Of a DNA stretch of 64,000 nucleotides, positions 12,450 through 63,226 are shown piece after piece. Source of the DNA: an uncultured Actinomycetota bacterium. GTDB lineage: Bacteria; Actinomycetota; Actinomycetes; Actinomycetales; JAHECE01. Position numbers and translations under genes: made by a program. The stretch covers positions 981,454 through 1,045,453 of the forward strand of contig CAWACR010000003.1 in the NCBI GenBank assembly GCA_963780675.1, read 5' to 3'. Within the stretch, counting starts at the first letter, position 1; the number at the start of each line of letters is the position of its first letter. The notes under the pieces are model-generated. The model had not been told where the DNA came from. It searched no databases and saw only the letters and a list, made by a program, of their open reading frames with translations.

Positions 12450-12450
12450 C

Positions 12451-14657: not shown

Positions 14658-14666
14658 GGCTCGGCC

Positions 14667-15101: not shown

Positions 15102-15209
15102 GTGCCTTCCTCTCGCGAGATCACGTATCACCCCGGCCCGCGCCGGACCCCAGCCCCTCGTCGAGAGGCCAGGCTCCGGCGTCGGCCGGGTCGAGCCGGT
15201 GGTGCCGGG

Positions 15210-17486: not shown

Positions 17487-18725
17487 GTGAGAACCTCCGA
17501 GCCCGTGCCGTCGCCTGCGCCCCACCCGCAGCTCCACGCCTGGATCGACGCCCGGGGCGGCATCGCCGGTGACATGCTCCTGGGCGCCCTCGTCGATGCC
17601 GGCGCCCCGCTCGCCGCCCTCCAGCGCGCCGTCGACGCCGTCATCCCCGGCACCGTGCGGCTCAGGGCCGGCACCGTGCACCGTGCCGGCATGCGCGCGA
17701 CAAAGGTCGACGTCGACAAGGTCGCCGACGACCTCCCCCACCGGCACTGGACCGACATCCGCGCCATGCTCGAACGTGCGGACGTCGACGACCACGTCCG
17801 CGCTCGGGCGCTCGCCGTCTTCGGCCGGCTGGCCCTTGCGGAGGCCCGCGCGCACGGCATCCCGCCCGAACAGGTGCACTTCCACGAGGTCGGCGCCTGG
17901 GACTCGATCGCGGACGTCGTCGGGGTCGCCGCGGCGTTGCACGAACTCGGCGTGGCGACGCTCAGCGCCGGGCCAGTCGCCCTCGGTTCGGGCTCCGTCC
18001 GGACGGCGCACGGAGAGATCCCCGTCCCGGTGCCCGCGGTGCTCGAGCTCGCCGCCGGCCGGCGCGTTCTCGGGGGCGGCACGGGCGAGCTGGCCACGCC
18101 CACGGGGATGGCGGTGGTCGTCGCCCTGGCGGAGGCGTGCGACGAGATGCCGGACCTGGAGGTCACCGCCGTCGGCGTCGGCGCCGGCACGCGGGACACC
18201 GCGGGTCGACCCAACGTCGTCCGCGTGGTGCTCGGGACGGCGGCCGAGCCGCTCAAGGTGAGCGACGCCGTCGTCCTCGAGGCGAACGTCGACGACCTCG
18301 ACCCCCGGGTGTGGCCCGGCGTGCTCGCGGCGTTGCTCGAGGCGGGGGCGTCCGACGCGTGGCTCACGCCGATCCTCATGAAGAAGGGACGACCTGCCCA
18401 CACGCTCGCCGTGCTCGCGGCGCCCGCGCGGGTGCCCGAGCTGCGCTCGCGCGTGTTTGCCCTCGTGCCCACGCTCGGCGTCCGGGAGACGGGGGTGCGC
18501 AAGACGGCGCTCGAGCGGACGTGGCGCACCGTCGACGTCGACGGCGCCGCAGTCCGGATCAAGGTCGCCCACGCGCGCCGGGTGATCGCTACGGCGACGC
18601 CGGAGTTCGAGGACGTGGCGCACGCGGCGGCCGCCTCCGGAACGCCCGTCCGGCACGTCCTCGACCGCGCGGTTGCCGCGGCCGTCGAGGCCGGGCTGAC
18701 GTCGGGCCGGCGGCTCCCGGACTGA
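17487..18725 (+). CDS. larC: nickel-pincer cofactor biosynthesis protein LarC (nickel insertion, DUF111 family), single fused ORF
   Basis: HAWIDARGGIAGDMLLGALVDAG, HFHEVGAWDSIADVVG and LMKKGRPAHTL are present. The start is GTG at 17487 or 17505 and remains uncertain. Confidence 0.85.
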   Translation: MRTSEPVPSPAPHPQLHAWIDARGGIAGDMLLGALVDAGAPLAALQRAVDAVIPGTVRLRAGTVHRAGMRATKVDVDKVADDLPHRHWTDIRAMLERADVDDHVRARALAVFGRLALAEARAHGIPPEQVHFHEVGAWDSIADVVGVAAALHELGVATLSAGPVALGSGSVRTAHGEIPVPVPAVLELAAGRRVLGGGTGELATPTGMAVVVALAEACDEMPDLEVTAVGVGAGTRDTAGRPNVVRVVLGTAAEPLKVSDAVVLEANVDDLDPRVWPGVLAALLEAGASDAWLTPILMKKGRPAHTLAVLAAPARVPELRSRVFALVPTLGVRETGVRKTALERTWRTVDVDGAAVRIKVAHARRVIATATPEFEDVAHAAAASGTPVRHVLDRAVAAAVEAGLTSGRRLPD

Positions 18726-18763: not shown

Positions 18764-19444
18764 CTACCGCGGAGCGGCGATCTGGGCGGCGAGGTGCCCG
18801 GCACCGTAGCCGTTGTCGATATTGACGACGGCTACGCCCGGCGCGCACGAGTTGAGCATCGTCAGCAGAGCCGCGAGGCCCTCGAAGGCGGCTCCGTAGC
18901 CGACCGACGTCGGTACGGCCACCACCGGAGCGGACACGAGGCCCGCGACGACGCTCGGCAACGCCCCGTCCATCCCGGCGACGACGACGACGGCGCTCGC
19001 CCGGCGGAGGAGGTCCAGTCGCCCCAGCACCCGGTGCAGGCCCGCGACACCGACGTCCATGACCAGCTCGCAGGACCGGCCGAGATAGGTCGCGGTCAGG
19101 ACCGCCTCGCGGGCGACTCGCAGGTCCGAGGTGCCGGCCGCGGCCACGACCACGAGCCCGCCCGTGGCTTCCGGGGGCTCCGGCGGCCAGGCGAGGAGGC
19201 CGGCCTCGGCGTCGACCATGGCGTCCGGCAGCTCGGCGAGGACGGCCTCGACGTGCCCGTCGCGCGCGCGGGTGAACAGGGTCTGCGTGCCGTTCCGGCG
19301 CACTCCGGCGGCGATCACGCGGAGCTGGGCGGGGCTCTTGTGCTCGCAGTAGACGGCCTCGGGATAGCCGCGGCGGCGTGCGCGGTCGTGATCGAGATCG
19401 GCGATGCGCGCCAGCGAGGCGGGCACCTCCCACGCGTCAGCCAC
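18764..19444 (-). CDS. larB: nickel-pincer cofactor biosynthesis protein LarB (AIR-carboxylase-like)
   Basis: GTG at 19444 overlaps the larE 3' end by 8 nt. IADLDHDRARRRGYPEAVYC, AAAGTSDLRVAREA, VAGMDGALPSVVAG, VAVPTSVGYG and VNIDNGYGAG are present. Confidence 0.85.
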   Translation of the reverse strand: MADAWEVPASLARIADLDHDRARRRGYPEAVYCEHKSPAQLRVIAAGVRRNGTQTLFTRARDGHVEAVLAELPDAMVDAEAGLLAWPPEPPEATGGLVVVAAAGTSDLRVAREAVLTATYLGRSCELVMDVGVAGLHRVLGRLDLLRRASAVVVVAGMDGALPSVVAGLVSAPVVAVPTSVGYGAAFEGLAALLTMLNSCAPGVAVVNIDNGYGAGHLAAQIAAPR

Positions 19445-20324
19445 GGACGGCGACCAATGGAAGGGTGAAGGCGCCCGACTGGATCCCTGCCACGTCGAGA
19501 GCCACGAAACGGAAGCCGGCTGCCCGCACCACCCGGATGACCTGCTCGCGCAGGCCGGGCGAGACAGCGCGCACGAGGTCCTCGGCGGGCAGCTCGATCC
19601 GGGCGACGTCGCCGTGGTGGCGGACCCGGCAGTCCCCGAACCCCAGACCGCGCAGGGCCGACTCCGCGGCGTCGATCTGCCGCAGCTTCTCGGGCGTGAC
19701 CTCCTCGAAGTGCGGGATGCGCGAGGCCAGGCAGGGGGCGGCGGGCTTGTCGGCGCAGGGTAGGTCGAAGGCCCGGGCGACGGCCCGCACCGCCGGTTTG
19801 TCGAGGCCGGCATCGGCGAGCGGGCGGAGCACGGCGTGGTTCGTGGCAGCGCGGGACCCCGGGCGGTCGGGCCGGCGGGCGTCGTCGGCGTTCTCGCCGT
19901 AGGCGATGGCCGTCAGACCGAACCGGCCGGCGACGTCGTCGGAGATCCGCGTGAAGAGCTCGTCCTTGCAGTGGAAGCAGCGGTCGGGGCCATTGGCCCG
20001 GTAGGAGGGGTTGTCCCCCTCGTGCGTGGCGACCTCGACCAGGGGAACGCCGACATGGGCAGCGACGGCGTGCGCGGCAGCCCGCTCGTCCACGGCCAGG
20101 CTCGGCGAGACCCCGAGGACGGCGAGCGTGCGGTGGGCACCCAGCACGCGGACAGCGACGGCGAGCAGGACCGAGGAGTCGACGCCCCCGGAGAACGCCA
20201 CGCCGAGCCGGGCGGGCCGGCCGATCGCGGCGGCGACGCGCGCGATGGCGGCCTCGACGTCGACCTCGGTGCCGGTCGCCGGGGCACCGCCCGGCTGGCG
20301 GACAGGGGAATCGGGGGTGGCCAC
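19437..20324 (-). CDS. larE: ATP-dependent sacrificial sulfur transferase LarE (PP-loop ATPase)
   Basis: PP-loop [21 protein letters not shown] and the Cys-containing PCLASRIP are present. The start is taken as GTG at 20324; alternatives lie upstream as far as 20453. Confidence 0.8.
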
Positions 20325-22621: not shown

Positions 22622-24104
22622 TCATGCCTCGATCTCGGTGCGGTCGCCCGACCACAGGGTGTGGAAGGTGCCGTCCTTGTCGATGCGCTTGTAGGTGTGG
22701 GCGCCGAAGAAGTCGCGCTGGCCCTGGACGAGGGCGGCGGGCAGGCGCTCGGCGCGCAGCCCGTCGTAGTACGACAGCGACGAGGCGAACGCCGGGCGTC
22801 GGGATGCCGTGCAGCGCGGCCTGGGACACGACGCGGCGCCACGCGCGACGCGCCGTCTCCATGACGTCGCGGAAGTACGGGTCGGCCAGCGAGGAGCGAC
22901 GAGGTCCGCCTGGCGCTCGTACGCCTCGGTGATGCGGTTGAGGAAGCACGCGCGGATGATGCAGCCGCCGCGCCAGATCCGGGCGATCGCCCCGCGGTCG
23001 ATGTCCCAGCCGTACTCCGCGCTCGCGCGGCGATCTGCGTCGAAGCCCTGCGAGTACGCGACGATCTTCGAGGCGTAGAGCGCCAGGCGCACGTCCTCGA
23101 TGAACGCGGCCCGGTCGGTGACCTGCCAGGAACCGGCCGGGCCGGGCAGGACGCCGCGGGCGGCCTCGCGCTGCGGGCTCCGGCTGGACAGCGCGCGGGC
23201 GAAGACGGCCTCGGCGATGCCCGAGACCGGGACGCCGAGGTCGAGCGCGGTCTGCACGGTCCAGCGCCCGGTGCCCTTCTGGCCGGCCTGGTCGACGATG
23301 ACGTCGACGAGCGGCTTGCCGGTCTCGGCGTCGACCTGCGCCAGCACCTCGGCGGTGATCTCGATGAGGTAGGACTCGAGGTCGCCGTCGTTCCACTCGG
23401 CGAAGATCTCGCGCGATCTCGGCGGGCGTCTCGCCCGTGCCCTGCCGGAGGAGGTCGTACGCCTCGGCGATGAGCTGCATGTCGGCGTACTCGATGCCGT
23501 TGTGCACCATCTTGACGAAGTGGCCGGCGCCGTCGGGGCCGACGTGGGTGCAGCACGGCTCGCCGTCGACGACGGCGGCGATCGACTCGAGGATCGGGCC
23601 GAGGGCGGCGTAGGACTCGTCCGAGCCGCCGGGCATGATCGACGGGCCCTTGAGCGCGCCCTCCTCGCCGCCGGAGATGCCGGCGCCGACGAAGTGGAGC
23701 CCGGTCTCGCGGAGCGCGGCCTCGCGGCGGATGGTGTCGGTGAAGAGCGCGTTGCCGCCGTCGACGATGATGTCGCCCGGCTCGAAGAGCGGGACGAGCT
23801 CGTCGATGACGGCGTCGGTGGCCGCGCCGGCCTGGACCATGATGATGATCCGTGCGGGGCCGTTCGAGGGTGGCGACGAACTCCTCGAGCCTCGTCGCGG
23901 GGACGAAGCGAGCCCTCGGCGCCGTGCTCAGCCATCGATGGCGGTCGTCCGGCCGGGGCTGCGGTTGTAGACGGCGACGGTGTTGCCCTCGCGGCTGGCG
24001 AGGTTGCGGGCGAGGTTGCTGCCCATCACCGCGAGGCCGACGACGCCGACCTGCGCGGTCGCGACGGTGCTGTCGCTGGGGGTGGGGATGGTGTCGGTGG
24101 TCAT
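22622..24104 (-). pseudogene. gnd: 6-phosphogluconate dehydrogenase (decarboxylating), frame broken about 6 times
   Basis: ATG at 24104 (MTTDTIPTPSDSTVATAQVGVVGLAVMGSNLARNLASREGNTVAVYNRS). Later pieces are in other frames: [51 protein letters not shown]...[16 protein letters not shown]...[41 protein letters not shown]...KGTGRWT...[20 protein letters not shown], and [33 protein letters not shown]. The frame changes lie between ~22790 and ~23935. Confidence 0.85.
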
Positions 24105-27072: not shown

Positions 27073-28128
27073 TTGACAGGTCCGTCCGTCCCGACGATCT
27101 ACGACGTCGCGAAGCTAGCCGGCGTCTCGGCGTCGACGGTCTCCCGTGCGTACTCGCGTCCGGGCCGGGTCGCCCCGGGGACGTCCGAACGGATCCTGGG
27201 CTCCGCCGCGAGACTCGGCTATCGCGCCCACGTCGTCGAGGCGGCGCCGTCCGGGAACGCCGACGTCGTGGCCTTGATCGTCCCCGATTGCGCGAGCCGC
27301 TTCGATGCAGAACTGGTGCACTGGATGGGCACCTACGCCGCGCGGGCCGGCCACTCGGTGGCAGTGGTCCTCGTCGGAACCGAGGACTCCCGGCTGGGTG
27401 AACGTCCATCCATCGAGAGGGTGCTCCCCGCCGTCGGCGGGGTCGTGATCTCCGGGCCTCGCATGCCCGACTCGACCATCCGCGTGATCGCGAAGCAGCG
27501 GCCGACGGTGGTGCTGAACCGGGTGGTCGCCGACGTCCCCAGCGTGGTCCGCGACACCCTGCACGGCATGCGCCTGGCGGTCGAGCACTTGGCGACGCTC
27601 GGCCATCACGACGTGACCTACGTCGCGGGCCCCGCGGACTCGTGGGCGGACGGGGTCCGCTGGCGCTCGATCCGGGAGGCGTCGCTTGACCTCGGGGTGC
27701 ACGCGCGCCGGATCGGCCCCTGTCCGGCGGACATCGCGTCTGGGGTGCGGGCGGCCGACGAGCTGCTCGCCCAGCGCGACTCGGCGGCCATCGCCTTCAA
27801 CGACGTCCTCGCCCTCGGCGTCATCCGTGGCCTTGCTGCCCGTGGACGTCGCGTCCCGGCCGACGTGAGCGTCGTCGGCGTCGACGACATCGAGTTCGCC
27901 TCGCTCGTGACCCCCTCGCTGACCACGGTCAGCCTCTCCAAGCAGGTGATGTGCGCCCTTGCCACGGCGACCCTCGACAGGCTCATGCGAGGCGAGACAC
28001 CCGGGCCGGACGACCGCGTCCAAGTGGTGCCCGCCCGGCTCGTCGTCCGCGACTCGACCGCTCAGCGCAGGCGGAAGAGCACCTCTCCGGCGTTGGGCAC
28101 GACCAGGGTCTCCGGATCGGACTCGTAG
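27073..28128 (+). CDS. LacI-family transcriptional regulator (paralog 2)
   Basis: TTG at 27073 follows GGGAGG. The HTH is PTIYDVAKLAGVSASTVSRAYSRPGRV. It aligns with paralog 1 along its whole length. The 3' tail overlaps the convergent LarA-like gene by 67 nt. Confidence 0.8.
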   Translation: MTGPSVPTIYDVAKLAGVSASTVSRAYSRPGRVAPGTSERILGSAARLGYRAHVVEAAPSGNADVVALIVPDCASRFDAELVHWMGTYAARAGHSVAVVLVGTEDSRLGERPSIERVLPAVGGVVISGPRMPDSTIRVIAKQRPTVVLNRVVADVPSVVRDTLHGMRLAVEHLATLGHHDVTYVAGPADSWADGVRWRSIREASLDLGVHARRIGPCPADIASGVRAADELLAQRDSAAIAFNDVLALGVIRGLAARGRRVPADVSVVGVDDIEFASLVTPSLTTVSLSKQVMCALATATLDRLMRGETPGPDDRVQVVPARLVVRDSTAQRRRKSTSPALGTTRVSGSDS

Positions 28129-29351
28129 GCCGCCAGGTCGAAGTCCTGGGGGGCGATGTAGCCGAGGTTCGCCTTGCGCACCTTCTCCTCGGGGATCGTC
28201 GTGACGAGCGTGACGTCCACGCGGCACTTCTCGCCCTCGACCTCGTCGTACGTCCCGGCACCGCGCAGGTGCGTGCTGTGCGCGAGGACGCCCCAGTGCA
28301 CGTCCTTGAACCGGTCCCACTGCTTCACGAAGTAGTCCCGGCAGTGGTAGCCGATCTCGTAGATCTCGTGGTGGGTGAACGAGATCTCGGAGATGTGCGG
28401 GGCATAGATGATGACCTCGCCGCCGTCCGCGACGACGGGCTCGAGCTTGTAGAAGCCCTTGGCCGCCGTCCAGATCTCCGGGTACTTCTCGGGGATGATC
28501 GAGACGACGCGCTTCACCGGGGCATCCAGGTACCGGACGTGCGTCTCGGCGGTGACCTCGGCCGCGGACGCCCACGCGGTCTCTGTGGTACCGAACGTCA
28601 CGGCGTGCAGGGAGTACGAGCCGGCCTGCGGCACGATGCACAGCGCGAGCTTCTCGCTCGGGATGAGGTTCGACGCCTCGTTGATGAGGGCACGCACGGG
28701 CGTGATCCCGCGGGTGCCGATGATCTGAGCACTCGTGATCAGGGCGCCGACCCAGTGGGTGAGATCGATGATGTCCTGACCGGCGACACCCGGGAAGAAG
28801 TACTTGTTGCCGCCCGACATGCCCACCACCTCGTGCGGGAGGACCGGGCCGATGACCAGGGCGACGTCGTTCTCGACGACGGCGCGGTTGAGGTCCACCT
28901 TCGCCGGGACGTCGAGCCGTCCCTCGGTCAGCTCCTTCACCCGCTCGGCGCTGATCGTGCCCAGCGAGGCGAACGTCTCCGGCTCCCACCACTCGTGCTG
29001 GATGACGTTCAGGCCCGGGTACGTGGCCTCCAACCCGTGCTCCTCGTACCCCATCCAGTGAGCGAGCTCCGTCTCGCTCATCGCGGCGTGGGTCCCCAGG
29101 GCGATGAGGGCTGTGAGGGCGCTCACCCGGCCGACGAGGGCTTCGTGCACGCAGGAGAGGAGCATCGGCAAGGGGCTGCTGCGGGTGGCGTCCGGGAGGA
29201 CGAGGCACACGCTCTTGCCGTCGAGGTCGGCACCGCCGAGGGACTCGAGGATGAAGGCGCGCACCTCCTCGGTGGTGAGAACCCGGTCCGGTCCGCCGAT
29301 CCGGGAAGCGTCACGGGCCAGCGCGGAGACGTCGTCGAGAGTCGCGGTCAT
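28062..29351 (-). CDS. LarA-family nickel-pincer-dependent 2-hydroxyacid racemase/epimerase homolog (DUF2088)
   Basis: ATG at 29351 (MTATLDDVSALARD...). LVLPDATRS is present. PHEVVGMSGGNKYFFPG matches the LarA H..G.SGG.K..PG segment that carries the cofactor-tethering Lys. LAHSTHLRG is also present. Substrate is unknown. Confidence 0.75.
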   Translation of the reverse strand: MTATLDDVSALARDASRIGGPDRVLTTEEVRAFILESLGGADLDGKSVCLVLPDATRSSPLPMLLSCVHEALVGRVSALTALIALGTHAAMSETELAHWMGYEEHGLEATYPGLNVIQHEWWEPETFASLGTISAERVKELTEGRLDVPAKVDLNRAVVENDVALVIGPVLPHEVVGMSGGNKYFFPGVAGQDIIDLTHWVGALITSAQIIGTRGITPVRALINEASNLIPSEKLALCIVPQAGSYSLHAVTFGTTETAWASAAEVTAETHVRYLDAPVKRVVSIIPEKYPEIWTAAKGFYKLEPVVADGGEVIIYAPHISEISFTHHEIYEIGYHCRDYFVKQWDRFKDVHWGVLAHSTHLRGAGTYDEVEGEKCRVDVTLVTTIPEEKVRKANLGYIAPQDFDLAAYESDPETLVVPNAGEVLFRLR

Positions 29352-48910: not shown

Positions 48911-48979
48911 GGCCACTGCGGAGACATTCCTGCGCCAGGTGAACGAAAGGTTCCGCACGACGGCCGACGACGGCGCCCC
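48911..48979. repeat. 69-nt exact repeat, copy 1 (copy 2 at 50790-50858)
   Basis: ggccactgcggagacattcctgcgccaggtgaacgaaaggttccgcacgacggccgacgacggcgcccc is identical at both loci. It contains TGCGGA...TCCGCA inverted arms. Confidence 0.9.
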
Positions 48980-49023
48980 TGGGATCCGCGCCCGGCGCGG
49001 CGCGCACGTGGTGCATGACCAGG

Positions 49024-49704
49024 TCAGCGCCCGGCAGCCTCGGCCCTGACCGGCTGAGGTCGGCGCTCGAGGGGGTGCGAACCCATCGCGCGATGGGCCC
49101 AGGTCCTCTCGACTGGCATCAGGTGGTCGAACTCGGCGCTGTACCGCTCTGCCATGCCTGGGTTCACCGCGACGACGTGGAGCGTCCAGCCGTAGCCGTC
49201 GCAGACCTCGCGGACATGATCAACGATCTCGGCACGGAGCCTGTAGCCCCAGCCGCGCCCGGGCTGCGCCGCCACGTGGTCCTCGACCAGCAGCCCGGAG
49301 GGCACGCGCCGGAGGCGGATCGCGCTCAGGACCGAAGGCTCCCCCTCTCCGCCTTCGAGGACGTACGAGACCGCGGAGGTGGTCTGGCGGACGGTGCGGA
49401 GTCCTGAGACGGCGGGCTGGAGGATGGCCAGCCCGATCCAGACCAGCGTCACGATGGCGAACCACGCCATGAGCGAGAGCCCGAGCCAGGGGGTCGGTGC
49501 GGTCATCCCGGCGGGAGCGACCGCGTACCACGCGGCGCAGATGCCCGCGATGCCCGGGGGAACCGATGCAGCCAGCCGACCGAACCGCCCCCGGAGCACA
49601 TTGGTCCGCGAGCCACCGTAGTAGGCACGCACGACGGCCCGACGGTCTGCCCTCGTGGGACGCCGGGCCGCGCCGAGCCGGTCCGGGAACTGTTCTGCGG
49701 GCAT
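49024..49704 (-). CDS. membrane-anchored protein with a GNAT-like C-terminal part
   Basis: ATG at 49704. Two or three TM helices (IAGICAAWYAV, LGLSLMAWFAIVTLVWIGLAIL) are followed by an acetyl-CoA-binding-like QPGRGWGYRL. The assignment is weak. Confidence 0.4.
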   Translation of the reverse strand: MPAEQFPDRLGAARRPTRADRRAVVRAYYGGSRTNVLRGRFGRLAASVPPGIAGICAAWYAVAPAGMTAPTPWLGLSLMAWFAIVTLVWIGLAILQPAVSGLRTVRQTTSAVSYVLEGGEGEPSVLSAIRLRRVPSGLLVEDHVAAQPGRGWGYRLRAEIVDHVREVCDGYGWTLHVVAVNPGMAERYSAEFDHLMPVERTWAHRAMGSHPLERRPQPVRAEAAGR

Positions 49705-49861
49705 GTCTCGATCGCCTCTCGACGTGGGTTGTCGAATTGCAGGCTACGACGACGAGCAGTGGGTGTTCACCGTGGCGCCGAGTCCTGTGGACGGTCATGG
49801 ACCAGGTCTACGGCTGGTGAAGGGGCGCACCGCCGCGGCGACGTCGCACTCGGCGGTGGAC

Positions 49862-50299
49862 CTAACGCGCCTTCCGACGGCTCGCCCGCCACGCCGTCCA
49901 CGCTCCCGTGGACCATAACGCCCACGCGACGAGGAGTGGCTGGAAGAAGAGCCGGACCAGCCGCGCCTGGTCCGAGTCCAGCCCGAACGCGTCGGTCCGG
50001 GTCACGTACTGCGAGATGTTGCCCGGGAAGATCGCCACGAAGAACGCCGCGACGATCCACCCGATCGCGATGCGACACCTGGGCAGGGCGATCAGCGCCG
50101 CCCCCAGCGCCAGCTCGACGACACCGGAGGCCACCACGACGGCGTCAGGTTCCGCCGGCACCCACGGCGGCACCTGGGCTTGGAACTCTTCGCGCTGCGT
50201 GGTGAGGTGGGCGGTACCCGCGAGCAGGAGCGCGCCGCCGAGGGCGATCCGTCCGAGCGTCCTCACCGTCGAAGAGCGCGGTGTCGGCGACGGGGCCAT
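49862..50299 (-). CDS. DoxX-like small membrane protein
   Basis: ATG at 50299 follows AAGGAGA. It has four hydrophobic helices (RIALGGALLLAGTAHL, VVELALGAALIA). Confidence 0.55.
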   Translation of the reverse strand: MAPSPTPRSSTVRTLGRIALGGALLLAGTAHLTTQREEFQAQVPPWVPAEPDAVVVASGVVELALGAALIALPRCRIAIGWIVAAFFVAIFPGNISQYVTRTDAFGLDSDQARLVRLFFQPLLVAWALWSTGAWTAWRASRRKAR

Positions 50300-50555
50300 G
50301 GGGTCTCCTTGCGGAGTGGGGATCGAGGCGAGCGGACGTCACCAGTGTGGTCTTCAGCGAACGGTCCCATCCCCCGTCCGGCGTCACGTGCAGGTTGACC
50401 TTTGGTACTGGGCGTCGTCGCCGCGCACGTCGAGCGAGGTCGAGTCGGCGCGACGTCGCGGATGCGAGTCCCCGACTCGGCGTCGTTCCGACGACTTCGC
50501 GCGCCTCGCCCGGCGATGCCTGCCCGCTTCCGTCGCCCCGGGCGTACGGTCGAAA

Positions 50556-50767
50556 GGCGAGCAGGGGGCCGGTGTTCGACTTCACCTTCACCCCGACCAA
50601 CGGCGCCACGGCTGTCACGCTCGTCTGCGAGTGGCACCACAAGGTGCCGGTCGTCAGCGGTCTCCATCGAGGACTGGGAGACCAGGCGGTCCGCCAAGGA
50701 CCTCGACGAGATGCTTGCGACCCTGCAGGCCCAGGTCGAGGGCGGCGGCGCGCCGCCGGCGGAGTAG
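50556..50767 (+). pseudogene. 5'-truncated, frameshifted copy of the SRPBCC gene at 48434-48889
   Basis: GPVFDFTFTPTNGATAVTLVCEWHHKVPVVSGL, then after a 1-nt slip near 50664, IEDWETRRSAKDLDEMLATLQAQVEGGGAPPAE. Compare GPVFDMAFQPTDGATTVRLDIEWHENVPVVGGLIEGWEAKRTAKDLDEMLAAVKTQIEGAGAPSST in the intact gene. Confidence 0.75.
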
Positions 50768-50789
50768 CCGCGGACAGGCGCCGTCGCCA

Positions 50790-50858
50790 GGCCACTGCGG
50801 AGACATTCCTGCGCCAGGTGAACGAAAGGTTCCGCACGACGGCCGACGACGGCGCCCC
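50790..50858. repeat. 69-nt exact repeat, copy 2
   Basis: Identical to 48911-48979. A diverged third copy (about two thirds identical by my hand alignment) lies at ~50951-51015. Confidence 0.9.
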
Positions 50859-51259
50859 GGCACGGCGGCGTCGTCGTCGGGGAGGATCTCGCGGAGCCTT
50901 CTAGGGCCGCGGCCTCCGCGGGGCTCGCGGGCTCGCGGGCGCGCCGAGCCGGCCCTGTGCGGAAGGAATCTTGCGCCGGGCGCACGCGAGTTTCCGCACG
51001 GGCGTCGCCGACGGGAACCCGTCCGCGCTCATCCCTTCCCATTGAGGAATTAGGGGCGTACTGTTTGCCCGGTCATTACTCGAACATGGAGGTTTCGTCA
51101 TGATGCGACAGGACCACCGACTGGGCCGCGACGGAGCGGGCGAGAACGACGACGACTCCCTGGGCTGAACCTGGCCCGGACTTGACGCGGCACCGCGCGC
51201 AAACACCGCCCGCGAGCCCCGTCCCCGAAAGCCTCCCGCGCGTGCCTACGATCGTCGCT

Positions 51260-51703
51260 ATGACCCCCGACCTACCCGTCACCGTCGACGATCTGCCCAC
51301 GGACCCCGACGTCGCGTACCAGCCCGGGGTCTGCAACATCGGCACCGCGGACGTTGCGTTGCGGCGGCGCTCCGGCCACCTCGCCGCCGCCGCGACCGTC
51401 GGGCTCCTCGGCGCTCTCGTGGTGACGCGCGCCCCCCGCGTCACCCGCCTGCTCGTCGCCGTCCCGGCTGCCTCCGCGGCGTCCGGCTACATCCAGGCAC
51501 GCTCACACTTCTGCGCGGCGTACGGCTCCGCGGGCCTCTACAACTTCGGCGCCCTGGGCAGCCGCCAGACGGTGGCCGACGCCGCCGCCCGCGCCCTCGA
51601 CGCCGCCCGCGCCCGCGGGATCGGGCTGCAGAGCCTCGCCGTCGGACTTGCCGTGGCGGGCCTGGCCGTCGCATTGCCCGGCCCACGCCACCACCGCCAC
51701 TGA
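51260..51703 (+). CDS. hypothetical membrane protein
   Basis: ATG at 51260 (MTPDLPVTVDDLPTDPDVAYQPGVCNIGTADVALRRR...). It has two hydrophobic helices. I recognise no family. Confidence 0.45.
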   Translation: MTPDLPVTVDDLPTDPDVAYQPGVCNIGTADVALRRRSGHLAAAATVGLLGALVVTRAPRVTRLLVAVPAASAASGYIQARSHFCAAYGSAGLYNFGALGSRQTVADAAARALDAARARGIGLQSLAVGLAVAGLAVALPGPRHHRH

Positions 51704-51714
51704 AGGGGGCGGCT

Positions 51715-52683
51715 ATGGCAACGGGCCCAGGGATCCCCGGAGCCAGCGGCCAGGTCTCGACGGCGATCGAGGTGGACGGCGCGAGGTTCGGCGAGGGCGG
51801 CTTCCGGCGGACCGTCGACCGGTTCACGGCCGCGGCCTTCACGGCGGACGCGGACGCCGTCGGCCGGCTCCTCCCGACCCCCACCCTGCGGCCGCTGCGG
51901 ATCTCGCCGCGTCGCGCCGTCGTCTTCGCCTACGGCGCGACCTACGAGTGGCACATGGGCTCGCTGCCGCCGTTCCGGAGCGGGGAGATGGCCCTGCTCG
52001 CGCTCGTCACGCGCGGTCCGGCGTCGTCACCTCCCCTCCTGCCGTTCCTCGGGAACCGCAGCACCCGGCTGTCGGAGCGGTACGGGGTCGGCTCCGTCTT
52101 CCTCGAGGTCGGGACCACCAACCGCGTGGCGCGCGAGGTGTACCGGCGCGCGTTCGGGCTGCCGGCATTCCTCGCCGACGTCCGCAACGACCAATGGCCG
52201 GGTTCGGACCGGTTCCGGTGCACCGAGGCGGGGCGGCTCGTCCTCGACCTCACCGTCCACGCGGACGTCCGCCCGCGCCGGATCACCGACCGCACCTGGG
52301 TCTACGGATCGCGGGACGGCGCGATCACCGGCTTCCCCAACACCGACTCCGGCTCGGTGCGGCGGCGCTTCGCACCTGGCGCTGCGCGGCTCGACCTCGG
52401 TGACCACCCCGCCGCGGCGCGCCTGCGCGGCCTGAGCATCTCGCCGCGCTCGCTCTTCGGCGACATCTGGACGGGCGGGCTGTCGGTGCCGGGACCGATC
52501 CAGGTCCTCGGGCGGGCGGAGTGGCCGGGAACCGCCCACGAGGGGACCGACCGCGCGCAGGGGCAACTCGTGGTGAGCCGGGTGCCCGGGGAAGACGTCG
52601 AGGTGGACCAGGGTCTGGGTGGTCTGCCGTTCGACCCCATGGGCGCGTTCGGAATCGATCCGCTGCCAGGACGCGGGACGTAA
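51715..52683 (+). CDS. hypothetical protein
   Basis: ATG at 51715 follows GAAGGGGG, 11 nt after the previous stop, giving 322 aa. No motif I can name with confidence. Confidence 0.45.
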   Translation: MATGPGIPGASGQVSTAIEVDGARFGEGGFRRTVDRFTAAAFTADADAVGRLLPTPTLRPLRISPRRAVVFAYGATYEWHMGSLPPFRSGEMALLALVTRGPASSPPLLPFLGNRSTRLSERYGVGSVFLEVGTTNRVAREVYRRAFGLPAFLADVRNDQWPGSDRFRCTEAGRLVLDLTVHADVRPRRITDRTWVYGSRDGAITGFPNTDSGSVRRRFAPGAARLDLGDHPAAARLRGLSISPRSLFGDIWTGGLSVPGPIQVLGRAEWPGTAHEGTDRAQGQLVVSRVPGEDVEVDQGLGGLPFDPMGAFGIDPLPGRGT

Positions 52684-56156: not shown

Positions 56157-56201
56157 ACCCAGGCCACCACACCCTGGCCACGAACCACTCCGGGTCGACG
56201 C

Positions 56202-57202
56202 TCAGGCGTCCGCCGGAACACTCACCCGTCGGCCCGTCTCGAAGGACTCGATCGCGCAGTGCGCGAGGAGCAGCGCCCGCCGACCGGCGCGGGCGTGGAC
56301 CGGCGGCGGATCGCCGGCGCGGAGCGCAGCGAGGATCGCGTCGACGTGGCGGTCGAAGGTGCGCGTGAAGGCCGCGCTCGTCGTCGTTGAAGTAGCCGGC
56401 CTCCCACACGCGGCGGTCTCGTCGCCGGCGCGGTGAGAGGCTGAAGCGCCGCACGGTGTCGTGGATCACGAGGCGGCCCCGCGTCCCGTTGACCTCGACG
56501 CAGCTGCGAGTCCGGGTAGGCGTACGACGAGTCGTAGCTGCCGAGCATCGTCCCCACGGCGCGGTTCTCGAACTCGAGGGCGAGCGCGATGGTGCGAGTA
56601 GTCGCCGTAGGTCTTGTCGGTCATCTGGGCGACGATCGAGGCGATCGGCCCGACGAGGTGCTCGAGCATGTCGAAGCCGTGGCACTGGGTCTCGATGAGG
56701 TTCGCGTGGGGCGAGGTGCCGTGGTTCGCCTCGCCGCCGAAGCGCCAGGTCGCGAAGACGAGCTCGCCGAGCTCGCCCGCCGTCGATCGCGGCCTTGGCG
56801 CGGGCGACGGGCTCGGCGAAGCGGTGGTTGAAGTTGATGGCGAAGAAGAGGTCGCGCTCGGCGGCCTCGGCGAGCAGCGGTCCGCCTCGTCGAGGTGGAA
56901 GACGAGCGGCTTCTCGACGAGGAGCGGGACGCCCGCCTCGATGAGGTCGCAGCGTCGGCTCGAAGTGGCCCTCGTTCGGCAGGCACACGGTGACGAGGTC
57001 GGGGTGCTCGGCGCCCAGCATCTCGTCGACGACGGTGTACGGGCGTGCTCCGAACGTCGGCCGCTCGCGCCGCCGTCTTGTCCACCGTGCGGCCGACGAC
57101 GGCGCACAGCTCCGTGTCCGGCCGTCCCGAGAAGACCCGCGCGTGCTCGTGACCCCACCACGCGCCGGTGCCCACCACCGCGACCCTCAGTCGGGCAACC
57201 AT
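56202..57202 (-). pseudogene. Gfo/Idh/MocA-family oxidoreductase, frame broken about 9 times
   Basis: [24 protein letters not shown]... is followed by family-typical pieces in alternating frames. They are [83 protein letters not shown]...[53 protein letters not shown] and AFTRTFDRHVDAILAALRAGDPPPV. Confidence 0.8.
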
Positions 57203-57313
57203 CCCTCCACGATCCTCGCTCTCCGCCCGGGCGGCAGGACCTTGGACTCTCGACCGACCGACGGCGTCCGTGCGAACCTGGTCGAACGGTCGCCGATCGC
57301 AGGAGGCGCCGAG

Positions 57314-57787
57314 ATGACGACGACGTCGCGCACCCCCGCGTCGCGCCCCTTCTTGCCCCGGGGCGCCCGGTCGGCACGCGTCCGCCCGCGAGCCCAGACC
57401 TCGCCCTCCCCTTCAGCTGTCAGCGCGGGCGTCGACACGGTGTCGGTCGAGCGCCTCGAACGCCTCCTCCACCTGCGCGGCGCGGCTCTGACCGGCCGGG
57501 TCTTCACGCCGCACGAACTCACCACCTGCGCCGGGAGCCCCGCGCGCCTCGCGGCCCGCCTCGCCGCCAAGGAGGCCGCCGCCAAGGCGCTCGGCACCGG
57601 CATCGGCCCGGTCGCCTGGCGCGACCTCGAGGTCCGCACCGCCGACGACGGCGCCCCGTCCCTTGCCCTGCACGGCGCCGCCGCCGCGCTCGCCCGCCGC
57701 CGAGGCCTGACCACCTGGGCGGTCAGCCTCACGCACGACACGGGCCGCGCCGTCGCCGTCGTCGTCGCCACGGGAGGCGCGCCGTGA
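57314..57787 (+). CDS. acpS: holo-[acyl-carrier-protein] synthase (4'-phosphopantetheinyl transferase, AcpS type)
   Basis: ATG at 57314 lies 7 nt after AGGAGG. The AcpS core is [10 protein letters not shown]...RVFTPHE...[18 protein letters not shown]...WRDLEV...GAPSLALHG...VSLTHD. It carries a ~35-aa N-terminal extension. Confidence 0.8.
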
Positions 57788-59586
57788 CCTACCCGACCAT
57801 CCCCAAGGACGCCGCTGCGCTGCGCGTCGAACCCAACCTCCCCGCCGACGGCGTCGCAGGTGAGGCCTTCACCTGGGACCTGGCCCGGTCCTGGCTCGAC
57901 GGCCTGCCCGACGGGGGCCTCAACATCGCCCACGAGGCCGTCGACCGGCACGCCGCAGGACCCCGCGCGGACCACGTCGCCATCCGGTGGCTCGGCCGGC
58001 ACGGTGAACGGGACGACCTCACCTACGCGGACCTCGCCCGGCGTACGAACGCCTTCGCGAACGTCCTCGACCGCCTCGGGCTGGCCCGCGGCGACGCCGT
58101 CTTCGCCCTCACCGGCCGCGTGCCCGCGCTCTACGTCGCCGCGCTCGGCACCCTCAAGGCGGGCGCGGTGTTCTGCCCGCTCTTCTCGGCGTTCGGCCCC
58201 GAGCCCGTGCGCCAGCGCCTCGCGATCGGCGAGGGCCGGGCCCTCGTCACCACCCGCGCCGCGTACGAGCGCAAGATCGCGGGTCTGCGCGCCGGCCTGC
58301 CGCGCCTCGAGCACGTGCTCCTCGTCGACGTCGCCCCGGGCGAGACCACACCCCCCGGCACGACCGCGCTCGCCGACCTCCTCGCCGACGCGCCCGAGGA
58401 ATATGCGGCCGCGCCCACCACGCCCGACTCCCCCGCCCTCCTGCATTTCACGAGCGGCACCACAGGCACCCCGAAAGGCGCCGTCCACGTCCACGGCGCC
58501 GTCGTCATGCACCACGCCACCGGCCGGTTCGCGCTCGACCTCCACCCCGACGACGTCTTCTGGTGCACCGCCGACCCGGGCTGGGTCACCGGCACCTCGT
58601 ACGGCATCGTCGCGCCGCTCACCCTCGGCGTCACGAGCATCGTGGACGAGGCCGACTTCGACGCCGAGCGCTGGTACGCGATCCTGCGCGAGGAGCGCGT
58701 GAGCGTCTGGTACACCGCCCCCACGGCGGTGCGCCGGCTCATGCGCATCGGCGGGGAGTCCCGCGCCGGTGAACTCCCTGCGCTCCGGTTCGTCGCCAGC
58801 GTCGGCGAGCCCCTCAACCCCGAGGCCGTCCTGTGGGGGGTCGAGGCCCTCGGCCTGCCGATCCACGACAACTACTGGCAGACCGAGACCGGCGGCATCG
58901 TCATCGCGAACACCATCGCCGCTCCCATCAAACCCGGCTCGATGGGCCGCCCGCTCCCGGGCGTCGAGGCCGCCATCCTGCGCCGCGGCCCGGCCGGGGT
59001 CGTGGTCGCCGGCGGCGAGGCCGTCGTCGTCACCGAGCCCGACGTCGAGGGAGAACTCGCCCTGCGCCCGGGCTGGCCGTCCATGTTCCGGGGCTACCTC
59101 CACGAGGAGGAGCGGTACGCCCGGTGCTTCGTCGGCGGCTGGTACCTCACCGGCGACCTCGCCTCCCGCGACGCCGACGGCTACTTCTGGTTCACGGGCC
59201 GCTCCGACGACGTCATCAAGTCCTCCGGCCACCTCATCGGCCCTTTCGAGGTGGAGAGCGCTCTCATGGAGCACCCGGCCGTCGCCGAGGCGGGCGTGAT
59301 CGGCGTGCCCGATGCGATGGCCGGCGAGGTGGTCAAGGCGTTCGTCGTGCTGCGGCCCGGCGTCCCGGCCGACGCCGCGCTCCAGCGAGAACTCGTCGGC
59401 TTCGGCCGCAAGCGCCTGGGCGCTGCCGTCGCGCCCCGCGAGATCGCCGTCGTCGACGCCCTCCCCCACACCCGTAGCGGCAAGATCATGCGCCGCCTCC
59501 TCAAGGCTCGGGAACTGGGCCTGCCCATCGGGGACCTCTCCACGCTCGAGGGCGAACAACCCGACCAGACCATGGAGGCACCGTGA
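57784..59586 (+). CDS. acetyl-CoA-synthetase-like AMP-forming acyl ligase (ANL superfamily)
   Basis: GTG at 57784 overlaps the acpS stop (GTGA). [50 protein letters not shown] and [11 protein letters not shown] are present. Confidence 0.85.
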
Positions 59587-60593
59587 CCCCGACCCTCCCT
59601 CTCGGTCCCCTCGGCGTGGACCCCGGCGTTGCCGTCGGCTTCTACCGCGACATGCTGCGGATCCGTCGCTTCGAGGAGCGCTGCGTCGAGCTCTACAGCG
59701 CGACGAAGATCCGCGGCTTCATGCACCTCTACATCGGCGAGGAAGCGGTCGCGGTCGGCGCCACCGCGGCCCTGCGCCCCGACGACGCCGTCGTGTCCAC
59801 CTATCGCGACCACGGTCACGCCCTCGCGAGAGGGATGACGGCCCGCTCGATCATGGCCGAGATGTACGGGAAGGCGGAGGGGTGCAGCCGCGGGCGCGGC
59901 GGGTCCATGCACCTGTTCGACGCCGGCCTGCGGTTCTACGGGGGCAACGCGATCGTCGCCGGGGGGCTGCCGCTCGCCGTCGGCCTCGCCCTCGCGGACG
60001 CGTTGCTGGGCCGGGAACGAGTGACGCTGTGCTTCTTCGGGGACGGCGCCGTCGCCGAGGGCGAGTTCCACGAGGCGATGAACCTCGCCGCGCTCTGGTC
60101 GCTCCCCGTGGTCTTCGCGTGCGAGAACAACCTCTATGCGATGGGCACGGCGCTGGCCCGCGCGCAGTCGCAGACCGACCTCGCCCTCAAGGCGACCTCC
60201 TACGAGATGCCCGCCTGGGCGGTCGACGGGATGGACGTGCTCGCGTGCGCCGCCGCGGCCCGGCGTGCCGTCGACATGGCCCGCGCCGGCGGCGGCCCCT
60301 CCTTCGTCGAGTTCCGCACCTACCGCTTCCGCGCCCACTCCATGTACGACCCCGAGCTCTACCGCAGCAAGGAGGAGGTCGAGGAGTGGAAGAAGCGCGA
60401 CCCCCTCCCGCTCCTCGCCCGGCACCTGGGCGACGCCGGGCTCATGGCCGACGACGACGCCGCCCGCCTCGAGCGCGAGGTGGCCGCCGAGATCGACGAC
60501 GCCATCGCCTTCGCCGAGGCCGGCACCCTCGAGCCCGTGGCGGAGCTCACCCGGCACGTCTACAAGCGCGAGGCGACGGGCGGTGCGCGATGA
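59583..60593 (+). CDS. thiamine-diphosphate-dependent 2-oxoacid dehydrogenase E1 alpha subunit (pyruvate/acetoin dehydrogenase type)
   Basis: GTG at 59583 overlaps the ligase stop. [46 protein letters not shown] and [10 protein letters not shown] are present. Confidence 0.85.
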
Positions 60594-61603
60594 GCGCGAC
60601 GGGCGCGACGGGCGCGACGACGCCGCAGACCACCTTCCGCGAGGCCTACCGCGAGGCGATCCGGGACGCCCTGATCCGCGACCCGCTCGCGTTCCTCATG
60701 GGCGAGGACGTCGGCCGGTACGGCGGCTGCTTCGGCGTGAGCCGCGGCCTGCTCGAGGAGTTCGGGCCCGAGCGCATCCGCGACACCCCCCTCTCGGAGT
60801 CCGGCTTCACCGGCGCGGGCATCGGGGCGGCGCTGGGCGGGATGCACCCGATCGTCGAGATCATGACGGTCAACTTCGCGATGCTCGCGCTCGACCAGAT
60901 CGTCAACAACGCCGCGACGATGCTCCACATGTCCGGCGGGCAGCTCAACGTCCCGCTCGTCATCCGGATGACCACCGGCGCGGGGCGCCAGCTCGCGGCG
61001 CAGCACTCGCACAGCCTCGAGGGCTGGTTCGGGCACATCCCCGGCATCCGGGTGCTCGCCCCGGCCACCCTCGAGGACGCCCGCGGCATGCTCTGGACCG
61101 CCCTGCAGGACCCCGACCCCGTGCTGATCTGCGAGAACGGCTCGATGTACCCCGTGGCGGGCGACCTCGCGCCCGACGCCGGGCCGGTGGAGATCGACCA
61201 CGCCGCGACCCGCCGCGCGGGCACCGACGTCAGCCTGATCACCTACGGCGGCTCGCTCCCCAAGGTCATGAGAGCCGCCGAGGTCCTCGCCGAGGACGGG
61301 ATCTCCGCCGAGGTGGTCGATCTGCGGACACTGCGACCCCTCGACAACGCCACGATCCTGGCGAGCGTCACGCGGACCCACCGCGCCGTCGTCGTCGACG
61401 AGGGGTGGCGCAGCGGGAGCCTGTCCGCCGAGGTGTCCGCCCGGATCATGGAGGGCGCGTTCTACGACCTCGACGCACCCGTCGCCCGGGTGTGCGGCGC
61501 CGAGGTGCCGATCCCCTACGCCCAGCACCTGGAGCAGGCGGCCGTGCCCCAGGTCGAGGGCATCGTCACGGCCGCACGCGAGGTGGTGGGCCAGGGTGGC
61601 TGA
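60590..61603 (+). CDS. 2-oxoacid dehydrogenase E1 beta subunit
   Basis: ATG at 60590 overlaps the E1-alpha stop (ATGA). [48 protein letters not shown] and DLRTLRPLD are present. Confidence 0.85.
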
Positions 61604-62940
61604 GTTCAGGATGCCATCGCTCGGAGCCGACATGGAGTCGGGCACCCTGATCGCCTGGCACGTGAAGCCCGGGGACCACGTGGCGCGTGGCGACATCGTC
61701 GCCGAGGTGGACACCGACAAGTCCGTGATCGACGTCGAGACGTTTGCCACCGGCACGGTTGAGGAGATCCTCGTCTGGGAGGGCGACCGGGTGCCGGTCG
61801 GGACGCCGCTCGCGATCATCCGGGAGGACGTCGCGGCCGAAGGTGTGGGGGGCGCGGGGGGTGCACCGGAGCCGGAGGGTGCGGAACGCGCGGGTGCGGA
61901 GGCTGCGCGTCAGTCCACCACACCCGTCGACCGGACGGCGCCCGAACCGGCCGTGCCCGAACCGGCCGCGCCCGAAGCCGGCCGTGCCCGAACCGGCCGT
62001 GCCCGAGTCGACGTCCGAGTCGATACCCCTTGCGCCGGCAAGTCGGCGCGGCGGCCCCTCCGCGTCACCGCGCGCCCGACGGCGAGCAGCCGAGTTGGGC
62101 GTCGACCTCGCCGAGGTCGGCGGCACGGGGCCCGGCAGCTCCGTGACGAGCGACGACGTCGAGGCGTTCGCGGCCGCGCGCGCGGCTGTACAGGCGTCGG
62201 CCGGACCTGGGGCCGAGGTGCCCGTTCCCCCCGCCGAGGCGACGGCGCCTGCCGCTCCCCTCTCCGGAGCCGACCGCCGCGCCGCCCTGCGACGGGCCGT
62301 CGCGGCGTCGATGGCGCGGTCCAAGCGCGAGATCCCGCACTACTACCTCGCGAGCGACCTCGACGTCACCGACGCCGTGCGGTGGCTCGAGGAGCGCAAC
62401 GCGGCGCTCCCGATCACCGAGCGCGTGCTGCCCGCCGCGATGCTCCTGAAGGCGACGGCGCTGGCACTTCGGGACACGCCCGAGCTCAACGGGTTCTTCG
62501 AGGAGGGCGCATTCCGGCCCGGGGACGGCATCCACCTCGGCGTAGCCATCGCCATCAAGGGCGGGGGCCTCGTGGCGCCCGCGATCCGCGATGCCGACCA
62601 CCTGTCGATCGGCGACCTCATGGCGAACCTGCGCGACCTCGTCGCCCGGGCACGGTCCGGGGGCCTGCGGGCCACGGAGATGTCCGACCCGACCGTCACC
62701 GTGACCAGCCTCGGCGACCAGGGCGTCGACACCGTGCTCCCCGTGATCTACCCGCCACAGGTGGCCATCGTGGGGTTCGGGCGCATCCGGGACCGGCCCT
62801 GGGCGGTGGGGGGCGCCGTCGTCGTCCGCCAGATCGTGACCGCAACCCTGGCCGCCGACCACCGCGTCAGCGACGGCCACAGGGGCGCCGTCTTCCTGAG
62901 CGGCCTCGACCGAGCCCTCCACGCTCCCGAGATGCTCTGA
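61596..62940 (+). pseudogene. dihydrolipoamide acyltransferase E2 (lipoyl domain + PSBD + catalytic domain) with one extra base in the linker
   Basis: GTG at 61596. The lipoyl domain contains [16 protein letters not shown]...[14 protein letters not shown]. The PSBD ([16 protein letters not shown]) and the catalytic domain (IPHYYL..., [14 protein letters not shown]) are in the +1 frame (ORF 61744..62940). Total length is 3n+1. The extra G is at 61977, inside a 15-nt tandem repeat. Confidence 0.85.
61941..62001 (+). repeat. four tandem 15-nt units encoding the PEPAV linker of E2
   Basis: Units are cccgaaccggccgtg, cccgaaccggccgcg, cccgaaGccggccgtg (16 nt) and cccgaaccggccgtg. Confidence 0.9.
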
Positions 62941-62971
62941 CGCCCCACCTCACCGAACGAAGGGGACGCGC

Positions 62972-63226
62972 ATGGACCAGACCACGATCCGCGAGACGGT
63001 GCTCCGCGTGCTCGGCGAGGTGGCGCCGGACGTCGACGTGGGCAGCGCCGACCCGGCCGCCGACCTGCGAGAGGAGTACGAGCTCGACTCGATGGACATC
63101 CTCAACCTGGCGATCGGCCTGTTCCAGGCGACGGGCGTCGAAGTGCCCGAGCGCGACTACCCGAAGATCGTCACGGTCGACGGGTGCGTGGGGTACCTGG
63201 AGGCGCGCCTGGTTCCGCCCGGCTGA
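62972..63226 (+). CDS. stand-alone acyl carrier protein (phosphopantetheine-binding)
   Basis: ATG at 62972 follows GAAGGGGA, 31 nt after the E2 stop. It is 84 aa, with the attachment motif [12 protein letters not shown]. Confidence 0.75.

Follow-up and report, generated by a model that had tools for sequence, protein, structure and literature searches.

The window analysed here, a 64,000-nt stretch of contig CAWACR010000003.1 from an uncultured Actinomycetota bacterium, contains an operon in which genes for a phosphopantetheinyl transferase (PPTase; acpS) and an AcsA-type ligase are followed by genes for the E1alpha, E1beta and E2 components of a pyruvate dehydrogenase (PDH)-type complex and, last, by a gene for a small acyl carrier protein (ACP). 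Few enzymes of central metabolism are as well understood as PDH and acetyl-CoA synthetase, and a carrier protein is not supposed to be required by either, which raises the question of what an ACP does in their company. Six co-directional genes had been described in a first-pass annotation, and their coordinates, domains (Pfam and NCBIfam) and junctions all match those found here (Table 1), except that E2, previously taken as one gene, lies in two frames of the window sequence that are split by one extra base. The G+C content of the window is about 72%, which makes raw open reading frame (ORF) lists noisy, and coding frames were assigned from third-position GC (GC3).

When one genome per species was searched with the window ligase, 80 loci were recovered at 61-78% ligase identity (the ACPs share 30-55% identity with that of the window), and the 58 with at least 4 kb of sequence downstream of the ligase were counted as informative. 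The order ligase-E1alpha-E1beta-E2-ACP was found in 57 of the 58; 55 were colinear by tblastn, two were recognized on inspection, and one locus was interrupted. The same order in so many loci of unrelated genomes is far beyond chance. The unit is present in at least 13 phyla, and the groups that carry it include Actinomycetota, Chloroflexota, Acidobacteriota, Pseudomonadota, Desulfobacterota, Myxococcota, Nitrospirota (including Ca. Nitrospira defluvii), Planctomycetota, Verrucomicrobiota, Gemmatimonadota, Deinococcota, Methylomirabilota and Binatia. Since the gene order has been kept over such a range, a carrier protein seems to be built into a set of central-metabolism enzymes. The genes for E2 and ACP are often joined by a stop/start overlap; no more than 32 nt separate the end of the E2 match from the start of the ACP match in 49 of 55 loci, and for 23 of the 55 the distance is 0 nt. 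A lack of this adjacency in related genomes had been named in the first-pass annotation as a result that would count against a functional link, and for the ACP the adjacency is conserved. The flanking genes, on the other hand, differ from locus to locus (when flanking ORFs were clustered, even the most frequent family was seen in just 17 of about 80 loci, with varying side and strand), and because of this the unit is taken to be self-contained and to consist of five genes. Judged from these comparisons, the window carries one copy of a five-gene module that is self-contained and has become widespread horizontally.

The sixth gene, acpS, is a lineage-specific addition. It is linked to the module only in Micrococcales (the window, L001, L002 and L088, including Cellulomonas sp. 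P24, Myceligenerans indicum and Cellulomonas soli), where in four genomes it has the same position and is translationally coupled, and no other locus has it. Most ACP homologs come from Micrococcales, some distant ones being found in Binataceae, and the loci reached through them have the same gene order, with acpS in Cellulomonas sp. P24 and M. indicum and without it in Binataceae. The earlier description of the operon as bracketed by a PPTase is therefore correct for Micrococcales and does not extend beyond them, and the six-gene composition is not that of the conserved unit. The acpS product is a PPTase of the AcpS type (group I): it matches PF01648 (47.7 bits, cutoff 25) and TIGR00516 (67.4 bits, cutoff 59.8), and outside Micrococcales the nearest relatives of the linked acpS are Chloroflexota AcpS proteins in unrelated contexts.

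By sequence and predicted structure the ACP is a genuine carrier protein of a distinct family. It matches PF00550 with 24.9 bits (cutoff 20.8), has an isoelectric point of 4.05, and carries a D39/S40 pair that is invariant in all 63 module ACPs, within the family signature IAPE..DLDSxD..IPExDY. The AlphaFold2 model (pLDDT 92) is a four-helix protein with Ser40 at the start of helix II (residues 40-54) and a TM-score of 0.87 to the Thermus ACP 1x3o. A profile search of a library clustered at 50% identity recovered 1,098 representatives of the family at E<=1e-10, almost all of them stand-alone proteins. The possibility that it is the housekeeping AcpP of fatty acid synthase (FAS) was rejected, as the protein reaches no NCBIfam ACP cutoff (best 30 bits against 65-106 for the AcpP models), and there are no fab genes near the module.

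The two E1 subunits gave clear family assignments. E1alpha scores 451 bits against TIGR03182 (PDH_E1_alph_y; cutoff 394) and E1beta 397 bits against NF006667 (cutoff 321). In the PDB, the best match of E1alpha is human PDH E1alpha (269 bits, against about 127 for the branched-chain 2-oxoacid dehydrogenase), and that of E1beta is human PDH E1beta (297 bits), far above the branched-chain enzymes. These scores identify E1alpha/E1beta as an E1 of the mitochondrial PDH type, and the likely substrate as pyruvate. Acetoin had been offered alongside pyruvate in the first-pass annotation and is unlikely because both subunits are of the PDH type. An acetoin dehydrogenase (AcoABC) was rejected on the family scores: E1 passes the PDH models, one of which (TIGR03182) has a description that places acetoin enzymes outside the model, and of E2 the AcoC-type model NF011457 recognizes the lipoyl domain alone, at 78-90 bits against 307.

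E2 has one lipoyl domain, a peripheral subunit-binding domain (PSBD) and a catalytic domain with the DHRxxDG motif, and in the PDB an ortholog is closest to E2 of mitochondrial-type PDH. Intact orthologs nevertheless score only 250-264 bits against TIGR01349 (cutoff 445) and stay below the cutoff of every other NCBIfam E2 model. The catalytic domain is also the least conserved of the enzyme parts, with a median identity of 52% compared with 65-70% for the ligase and the E1 subunits. From these comparisons, E2 is the diverged component and evolves faster than E1 and the ligase. Sixty module E2 proteins (L001-L085; 62900-62940 in the window) were compared at the C-terminus, and nearly all end in ...LQEPExL, that is, directly after PExL. 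Canonical E2 cores have longer, hydrophobic C-terminal tails, which mediate contacts between trimers. The short C-terminus may affect the assembly of the core and the access of the ACP to it; in a core made of trimers only, the CoA-side entrance would lie open to an arm carried by a protein.

The ligase looks like a true acetate-specific AcsA. It scores 858 bits against NF003313 (acetate-CoA ligase; cutoff 729) and shares about 55% identity with an AcsA of 572 aa whose structure is known (PDB 9g79). Its residues were read from an alignment of 78 module ligases with E. coli Acs, in Acs numbering, and their roles in the acetate pocket, in contact with CoA (R191, R194 and R584, which touch its nucleotide part, and G524) and in catalysis (Lys609) are presumed from S. 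enterica Acs. In the pocket, T311, V386 and W414 are present in all 78, and V310 is Val in 75 and Ile in three. G524, R584 and Lys609 are likewise invariant, position 194 is Lys instead of Arg in 77 of the 78, and R191 falls in an alignment gap. As the acetate pocket is conserved, the acyl group that is handled is a C2 unit. The CoA-contact residues are compatible with the use of CoA and leave room for an ACP as acceptor. A role of the ACP as donor of octanoyl groups for the lipoylation of E2 was considered and rejected, given the invariant, acetate-sized pocket of the ligase and the absence of linked LipA or LipB.

The reading preferred here, tentatively and with a probability a little short of even, is that pyruvate-derived acetyl groups pass from the lipoyl arm of E2 to the dedicated holo-ACP, outside any biosynthetic cluster and in the vicinity of stress genes. 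Transfer to the ACP is favored because E2 and ACP are strictly coupled, E2 is diverged, and acpS has been added in Micrococcales. AcpS, or a host PPTase in other lineages, would convert apo-ACP to holo-ACP. Going by their family membership, E1alpha/E1beta would decarboxylate pyruvate and reductively acetylate the lipoyl arm of E2, and acetyl-S-ACP would then arise at the catalytic domain of E2, the acetyl group being taken up by the phosphopantetheine thiol of the ACP whose gene lies immediately downstream. The ACP could serve as acceptor instead of CoA or besides it, a step suggested by the strict linkage and by precedents in secondary metabolism (the Scl/Qnc and pepteridine systems, see below). 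The ligase would tie the same C2 thioester pool to free acetate and ATP, either as a second route of entry or, in reverse, as the regenerator of holo-ACP. Finally, the dihydrolipoyl arm would be re-oxidized by an E3 (lipoamide dehydrogenase) or another oxidant encoded elsewhere.

Several points weigh against acetyl transfer to the ACP. The PSBD and the DHRxxDG motif of E2 are retained in canonical form, as in ordinary CoA-dependent complexes, and the ligase appears fully compatible with CoA as acceptor, since R584, G524 and a basic residue at position 194 are kept; at about 55% identity to a genuine acetyl-CoA synthetase, the enzyme may do no more than produce acetyl-CoA. Among the best 150 representatives of the ACP family, the ACP was joined neither to E2 nor to the ligase, the one fusion seen being with OsmC, and no conserved consumer of acetyl-ACP is linked within 7 kb on either side of about 80 loci. 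The E2 gene is formally disrupted in the window, so that this copy could be inactive, and the case for acyl transfer to the ACP is one of linkage and analogy.

Much of this evidence would also fit an ordinary operon for acetyl-CoA supply, made up of a second PDH-type E1/E2 pair that uses the E3 of the host, together with AcsA, the ACP being an accessory (a regulator, a scaffold or a secondary acceptor). The ligase passes the acetate-CoA ligase cutoff and keeps CoA-contact residues, E1alpha and E1beta are above the PDH cutoffs, E2 retains all three of its domains, and the neighbors at some loci include genes of central carbon metabolism (phosphoenolpyruvate (PEP) synthase, malic enzyme) and Pat-like GNATs, a kind of protein known to regulate Acs. 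Such an operon leaves the ACP without a role, even though it is conserved as strictly as the enzymes (57/58) and is coupled to E2, and it accounts neither for the coupled AcpS of Micrococcales nor for an E2 that falls below every E2 equivalog cutoff. On balance, acetyl-CoA supply is the main rival and is regarded as rather unlikely, though well within consideration.

The disruption of E2 can be placed exactly. The frame that opens at 61596 encodes the lipoyl domain, and the PSBD and catalytic domains are in the +1 frame that ends at 62940. A 15-nt tandem repeat, CCCGAACCGGCCGTG, has its third copy lengthened by a single base, which makes the break; the copies are at 61941, 61956, 61971 and 61987, with spacings of 15, 15 and 16 nt. 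Removal of G61977 (or any one base of 61975-61977) gives an intact E2 of 447 aa that is colinear with intact orthologs of 395-451 aa, both halves aligning end to end. Taken at face value, the split at 61977 would mean that this copy of the operon is decaying and non-functional. A neighboring gene for a Gfo/Idh/MocA-type oxidoreductase (56200-57210, - strand), directly upstream of acpS, has at least six frame changes and could be seen in the same light; whether a pseudogene or a stretch of low quality, it has no relation to the operon. Decay is, however, considered distinctly unlikely. The two halves of E2 keep a strong coding signal (GC3) and complete domain matches, and the other five genes of the operon are intact. 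Moreover, frame changes occur elsewhere in the window in further conserved genes: thrS (threonyl-tRNA synthetase, 3757-6400, - strand), an essential gene, has at least ten, using all three frames, and tkt (transketolase, about 13950-17150, - strand) and gnd (6-phosphogluconate dehydrogenase, 22622-23935, - strand) have one each, near 15,580 and 23,410 respectively, with no stop codon at either junction. Because the segments between breaks stay well conserved, an indel-prone assembly fits better than gene decay, and because essential thrS as well as tkt and gnd are affected too, the frameshift in E2 is probably a sequencing or assembly indel and not biology. An exact look-up of the window E1beta in public assemblies returned no record, and an identical ACP was found in one other public sequence, a 1-kb Logan contig without the E2 linker. 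A separate stretch of about 2.8 kb (48917-51749) has no consistent GC3 coding frame despite long, overlapping ORFs, and may be a heavily frameshifted gene or truly non-coding.

The surroundings of the module were searched over 7 kb on either side in about 80 loci, with E. coli Lpd, AceF, FabH/D/F, AcpP, AckA, Pta, LipA and LipB as queries, and essentially nothing recurrent was found with any of them. The single match to Lpd (E3) in these flanks was weak (9e-06), and there was none in the window. The absence of E3, ketosynthase (KS) and any other FAS or polyketide synthase (PKS) gene, first noted for the operon, holds for the whole window. A missing E3 is weak evidence against a canonical PDH complex, because E3 is often unlinked in other organisms. 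Genes for nonribosomal peptide synthetases (NRPS), PKS or KS were not found in the window, nor was there any recurrent biosynthetic neighbor in the roughly 80 loci.

Neighbors that recur without being universal are tandem Usp proteins, Hsp20, CBS-domain proteins, a dienelactone hydrolase-like protein, Pat-like GNATs, PEP synthase and malic enzyme. In some loci genes have been inserted within the module itself: a DnaJ/CbpA-like protein and a CbpM/MerR-like partner in Nitrospira sp. (L038:11807-13084), nitroreductase and flavodoxin-like proteins in Burkholderiaceae (L085:11786-13016, 14049-14609), and an FNT-family channel in Pyrinomonadaceae (L051:11777-12643). In Cellulomonas soli (L088:1-7904) a Usp gene lies directly upstream of acpS and a complete V/A-type ATPase operon is also upstream; in Binataceae a NiFe hydrogenase lies downstream of the module. 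Two loci involve OsmC: in a metagenomic contig (L091:518-1237) an ACP fused to an OsmC-family domain directly follows a module-type E2, and in a Methylomirabilota metagenome-assembled genome (L044:6180-6611) a separate OsmC-like ORF follows the ACP. Ohr/OsmC peroxidases are reduced by lipoylated proteins. Each of these associations is a minority, and together they suggest a setting of stress or energy limitation.

Such neighbors invite a more specific idea, that of a closed, CoA-independent cycle. E2 would acetylate the ACP, and the ligase, running in reverse, would convert acetyl-ACP, AMP and PPi to acetate, ATP and holo-ACP, so that pyruvate is oxidized to acetate and energy is conserved and/or reduced lipoyl groups are supplied in hypoxia or oxidative stress. 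Re-oxidation of the reduced lipoyl arm would fall to E3 or to a lipoyl-dependent peroxidase, for example OsmC. It is the sole reading that needs no external consumer and would explain why none is ever linked; the stress-type neighbors (Usp, Hsp20, CBS, nitroreductase, DnaJ/CbpA and NiFe hydrogenase), the ACP-OsmC fusion and the OsmC ORF of L044 are consistent with it, and an AMP-forming Acs runs in reverse in Syntrophus. The scheme is purely inferential, however, and the stress-type neighbors each occur in no more than 10 of about 80 loci, OsmC in only two. Reversal of an AMP-forming ligase is also thermodynamically demanding, and a scan for DosR-type boxes gave no enrichment: of the 84 upstream regions, 23 had a loose match, and the background rate is 0.30 per 480 nt. 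A closed cycle is thought quite improbable.

The features of the operon are listed in Table 1. The acpS stop codon overlaps the start of the ligase gene (GTGA at 57784), the same overlap is found at 59583, that at 60590 is ATGA, the overlap at 61596 is 8 nt, and the ACP gene follows E2 after a gap of 31 nt. Gene starts are preceded by GGAGG-like ribosome-binding sites, and the acpS ATG (57314) has GGAGG. Scans for sigma-70 promoters and intrinsic terminators between 56.9 and 63.7 kb found none, and an Rfam search at E<=0.1 gave no match.

Table 1. Features of the operon, in positions of the 64,000-nt window.
Feature	Position	Strand	Supporting match
acpS, AcpS-type holo-ACP synthase, 157 aa	57314..57787	+	PF01648 E=1.8e-12; TIGR00516
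AcsA-type acetate-activating ANL ligase, 600 aa	57784..59586	+	PF00501 + PF13193; NF003313
E1alpha, thiamine diphosphate (ThDP)-binding, PDH type, 336 aa	59583..60593	+	PF00676 E=1.8e-90; TIGR03182
E1beta, PDH type, 337 aa	60590..61603	+	PF02779 + PF02780; NF006667
E2 5' part, lipoyl domain (DTDKS) and start of Pro/Ala linker	61596..61976	+	PF00364 E=8.3e-21
E2 linker, 15-nt tandem repeat, 4.4 copies, encodes PEPAV	61940..62006	+	Tandem Repeats Finder (TRF) period 15, 3% indels
E2 3' part, PSBD and acyltransferase catalytic domain (DHRVSDG)	61978..62940	+	PF02817 E=3.6e-12; PF00198 E=2.5e-57
Stand-alone ACP, 84 aa, Ser40 in ELDSMD	62972..63226	+	PF00550

The genes around the operon in the window code for glycosidases, glycosyltransferases, pentose-phosphate enzymes, Lar cofactor proteins and a CopC protein. 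The Lar set lies among sugar-acid genes (uxaC, mannitol dehydrogenase) and consists of a larC-like gene for nickel insertion (17505-18725, + strand) and genes for a LarB-like protein with an AIR carboxylase domain (18764-19426, - strand), a LarE-like protein (19437-20324, - strand) and a LarA-like Lar_N protein (28062-29264, - strand). A 236-aa fragment at 9073-9783 resembles a type I restriction HsdR-like protein, the match being confined to the C-terminal part of the latter. Beside it, the region 10001-14000, with genes for an M20 peptidase and an MFS transporter, has the lowest G+C of the window (0.64-0.65 compared with about 0.72), and the fragment and this stretch may be acquired DNA.

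What the module would mean depends on the acceptor. In hundreds of species a PDH-type E1/E2 and AcsA are locked to a dedicated ACP, and the carriers include environmentally important groups such as Nitrospira, Acidobacteriota, Planctomycetota, Binatia and soil Actinomycetota. The current annotation of these genes as ordinary pdhABC, acs and acpP conceals the association. If E2 or the ligase uses the thiol of the ACP, then acetyl-ACP, and not acetyl-CoA, would be a product of pyruvate oxidation in a setting outside secondary metabolism, and the idea that an E2 primes a carrier, so far limited to a few antibiotic pathways, would come to cover a housekeeping or stress module of wide occurrence. 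If the closed cycle were true, at least 13 phyla, Nitrospira and many soil aerobes among them, would share a portable module for surviving hypoxia or oxidative stress.

Among known systems, the canonical PDH with heterotetrameric E1 (mitochondrial and alphaproteobacterial) resembles the module in that the E1 subunits exceed its family cutoffs and E2 has the lipoyl domain, the PSBD and the DHRxxDG motif. It differs in that lpd is missing from the module operon and from its flanks of 7 kb (about 80 loci), the E2 of the module is far below the E2p cutoffs, and ACP and AcsA are fixed members. The ligase is like AcsA of the Bacillus subtilis type (NF003313/PRK04319; 9g79) in identity (about 55%), length class, acetate pocket, catalytic and acetylated Lys and C-terminal tail, as well as in the Pat-like GNAT neighbors of some module loci, but differs in being always operon-linked to E1, E2 and ACP in the 80 closest representative genomes. 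Ligation of acetate to an ACP is itself precedented in the citrate lyase system, where CitC is an ATP-dependent acetate:SH-ACP ligase and CitD a dedicated ACP. CitC is, however, not an ANL enzyme, the prosthetic group of CitD is phosphoribosyl-dephospho-CoA and not a phosphopantetheine installed by AcpS, and no 2-oxoacid dehydrogenase is involved.

A full-text literature search, with subscription journals mostly outside its coverage, turned up the Scl/Qnc and pepteridine analogies but no account of an acs-pdhABC-acp operon, in agreement with the earlier statement that no characterized system has exactly this composition. The precedent then cited for transfer from E1/E2 to an ACP holds and is in fact stronger than was claimed. 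The scleric acid cluster contains a PPTase, E1alpha-like, E1beta-like and E2-like proteins and an ACP (SclP/SclQ1-Q4) (PMC6335953), and the QncN/QncL/QncM proteins of quinocarcin and naphthyridinomycin biosynthesis are summarized there as glycolyl-ACP cassettes (PMC6335953, citing Peng et al. 2012). These systems share with the module the ThDP-dependent E1-like subunits, a lipoyl E2-like acyltransferase, a stand-alone ACP, an adjacent PPTase (in scl) and an E3 that is not encoded, and in them too the proposed acceptor of the acyl group is the ACP and not CoA. With the same parts list as SclP/SclQ1-4, the operon could be thought an extender-unit cassette of this type, making glycolyl-ACP from a ketose phosphate for a nonribosomal peptide or other natural product. 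That role is largely refuted by context and hardly tenable. The Scl and Qnc cassettes lie inside NRPS clusters, use ketose phosphates and yield a glycolyl product, and SclQ4/QncL have only lipoyl and acyltransferase domains according to the domain table (PMC6335953). The module, in contrast, lies in no biosynthetic cluster (NRPS, PKS and tailoring genes are absent from the window and the roughly 80 loci), its E1alpha/E1beta are PDH equivalogs, its E2 has a PSBD, and its additional, integral ligase (AcsA) appears acetate-specific. The unit also spans at least 13 phyla, and its flanks are unrelated in Nitrospira, Planctomycetota, Binatia and other carriers.

The pepteridine pathway offers the second precedent. 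Its E2-like protein, Plu2796, is fused to thiolation (T) and condensation (C) domains, and the carrier has been proposed to be primed in place of CoA (PMC5384830). PDH-type E1/E2 chemistry is combined there with a phosphopantetheinyl carrier, and E3 is borrowed from primary metabolism, as would be the case for the module; the differences are that the pepteridine carrier is part of E2 and a condensation domain consumes the acyl group, whereas the ACP of the module is free-standing and has no linked consumer. All of the families represented in the module are thus already known, as is the priming of a carrier protein by E1/E2 in secondary metabolism. What appears to be new is a fixed and very widespread module, in a context of primary metabolism or stress, that unites a PDH-type E1/E2, AcsA and a private ACP.

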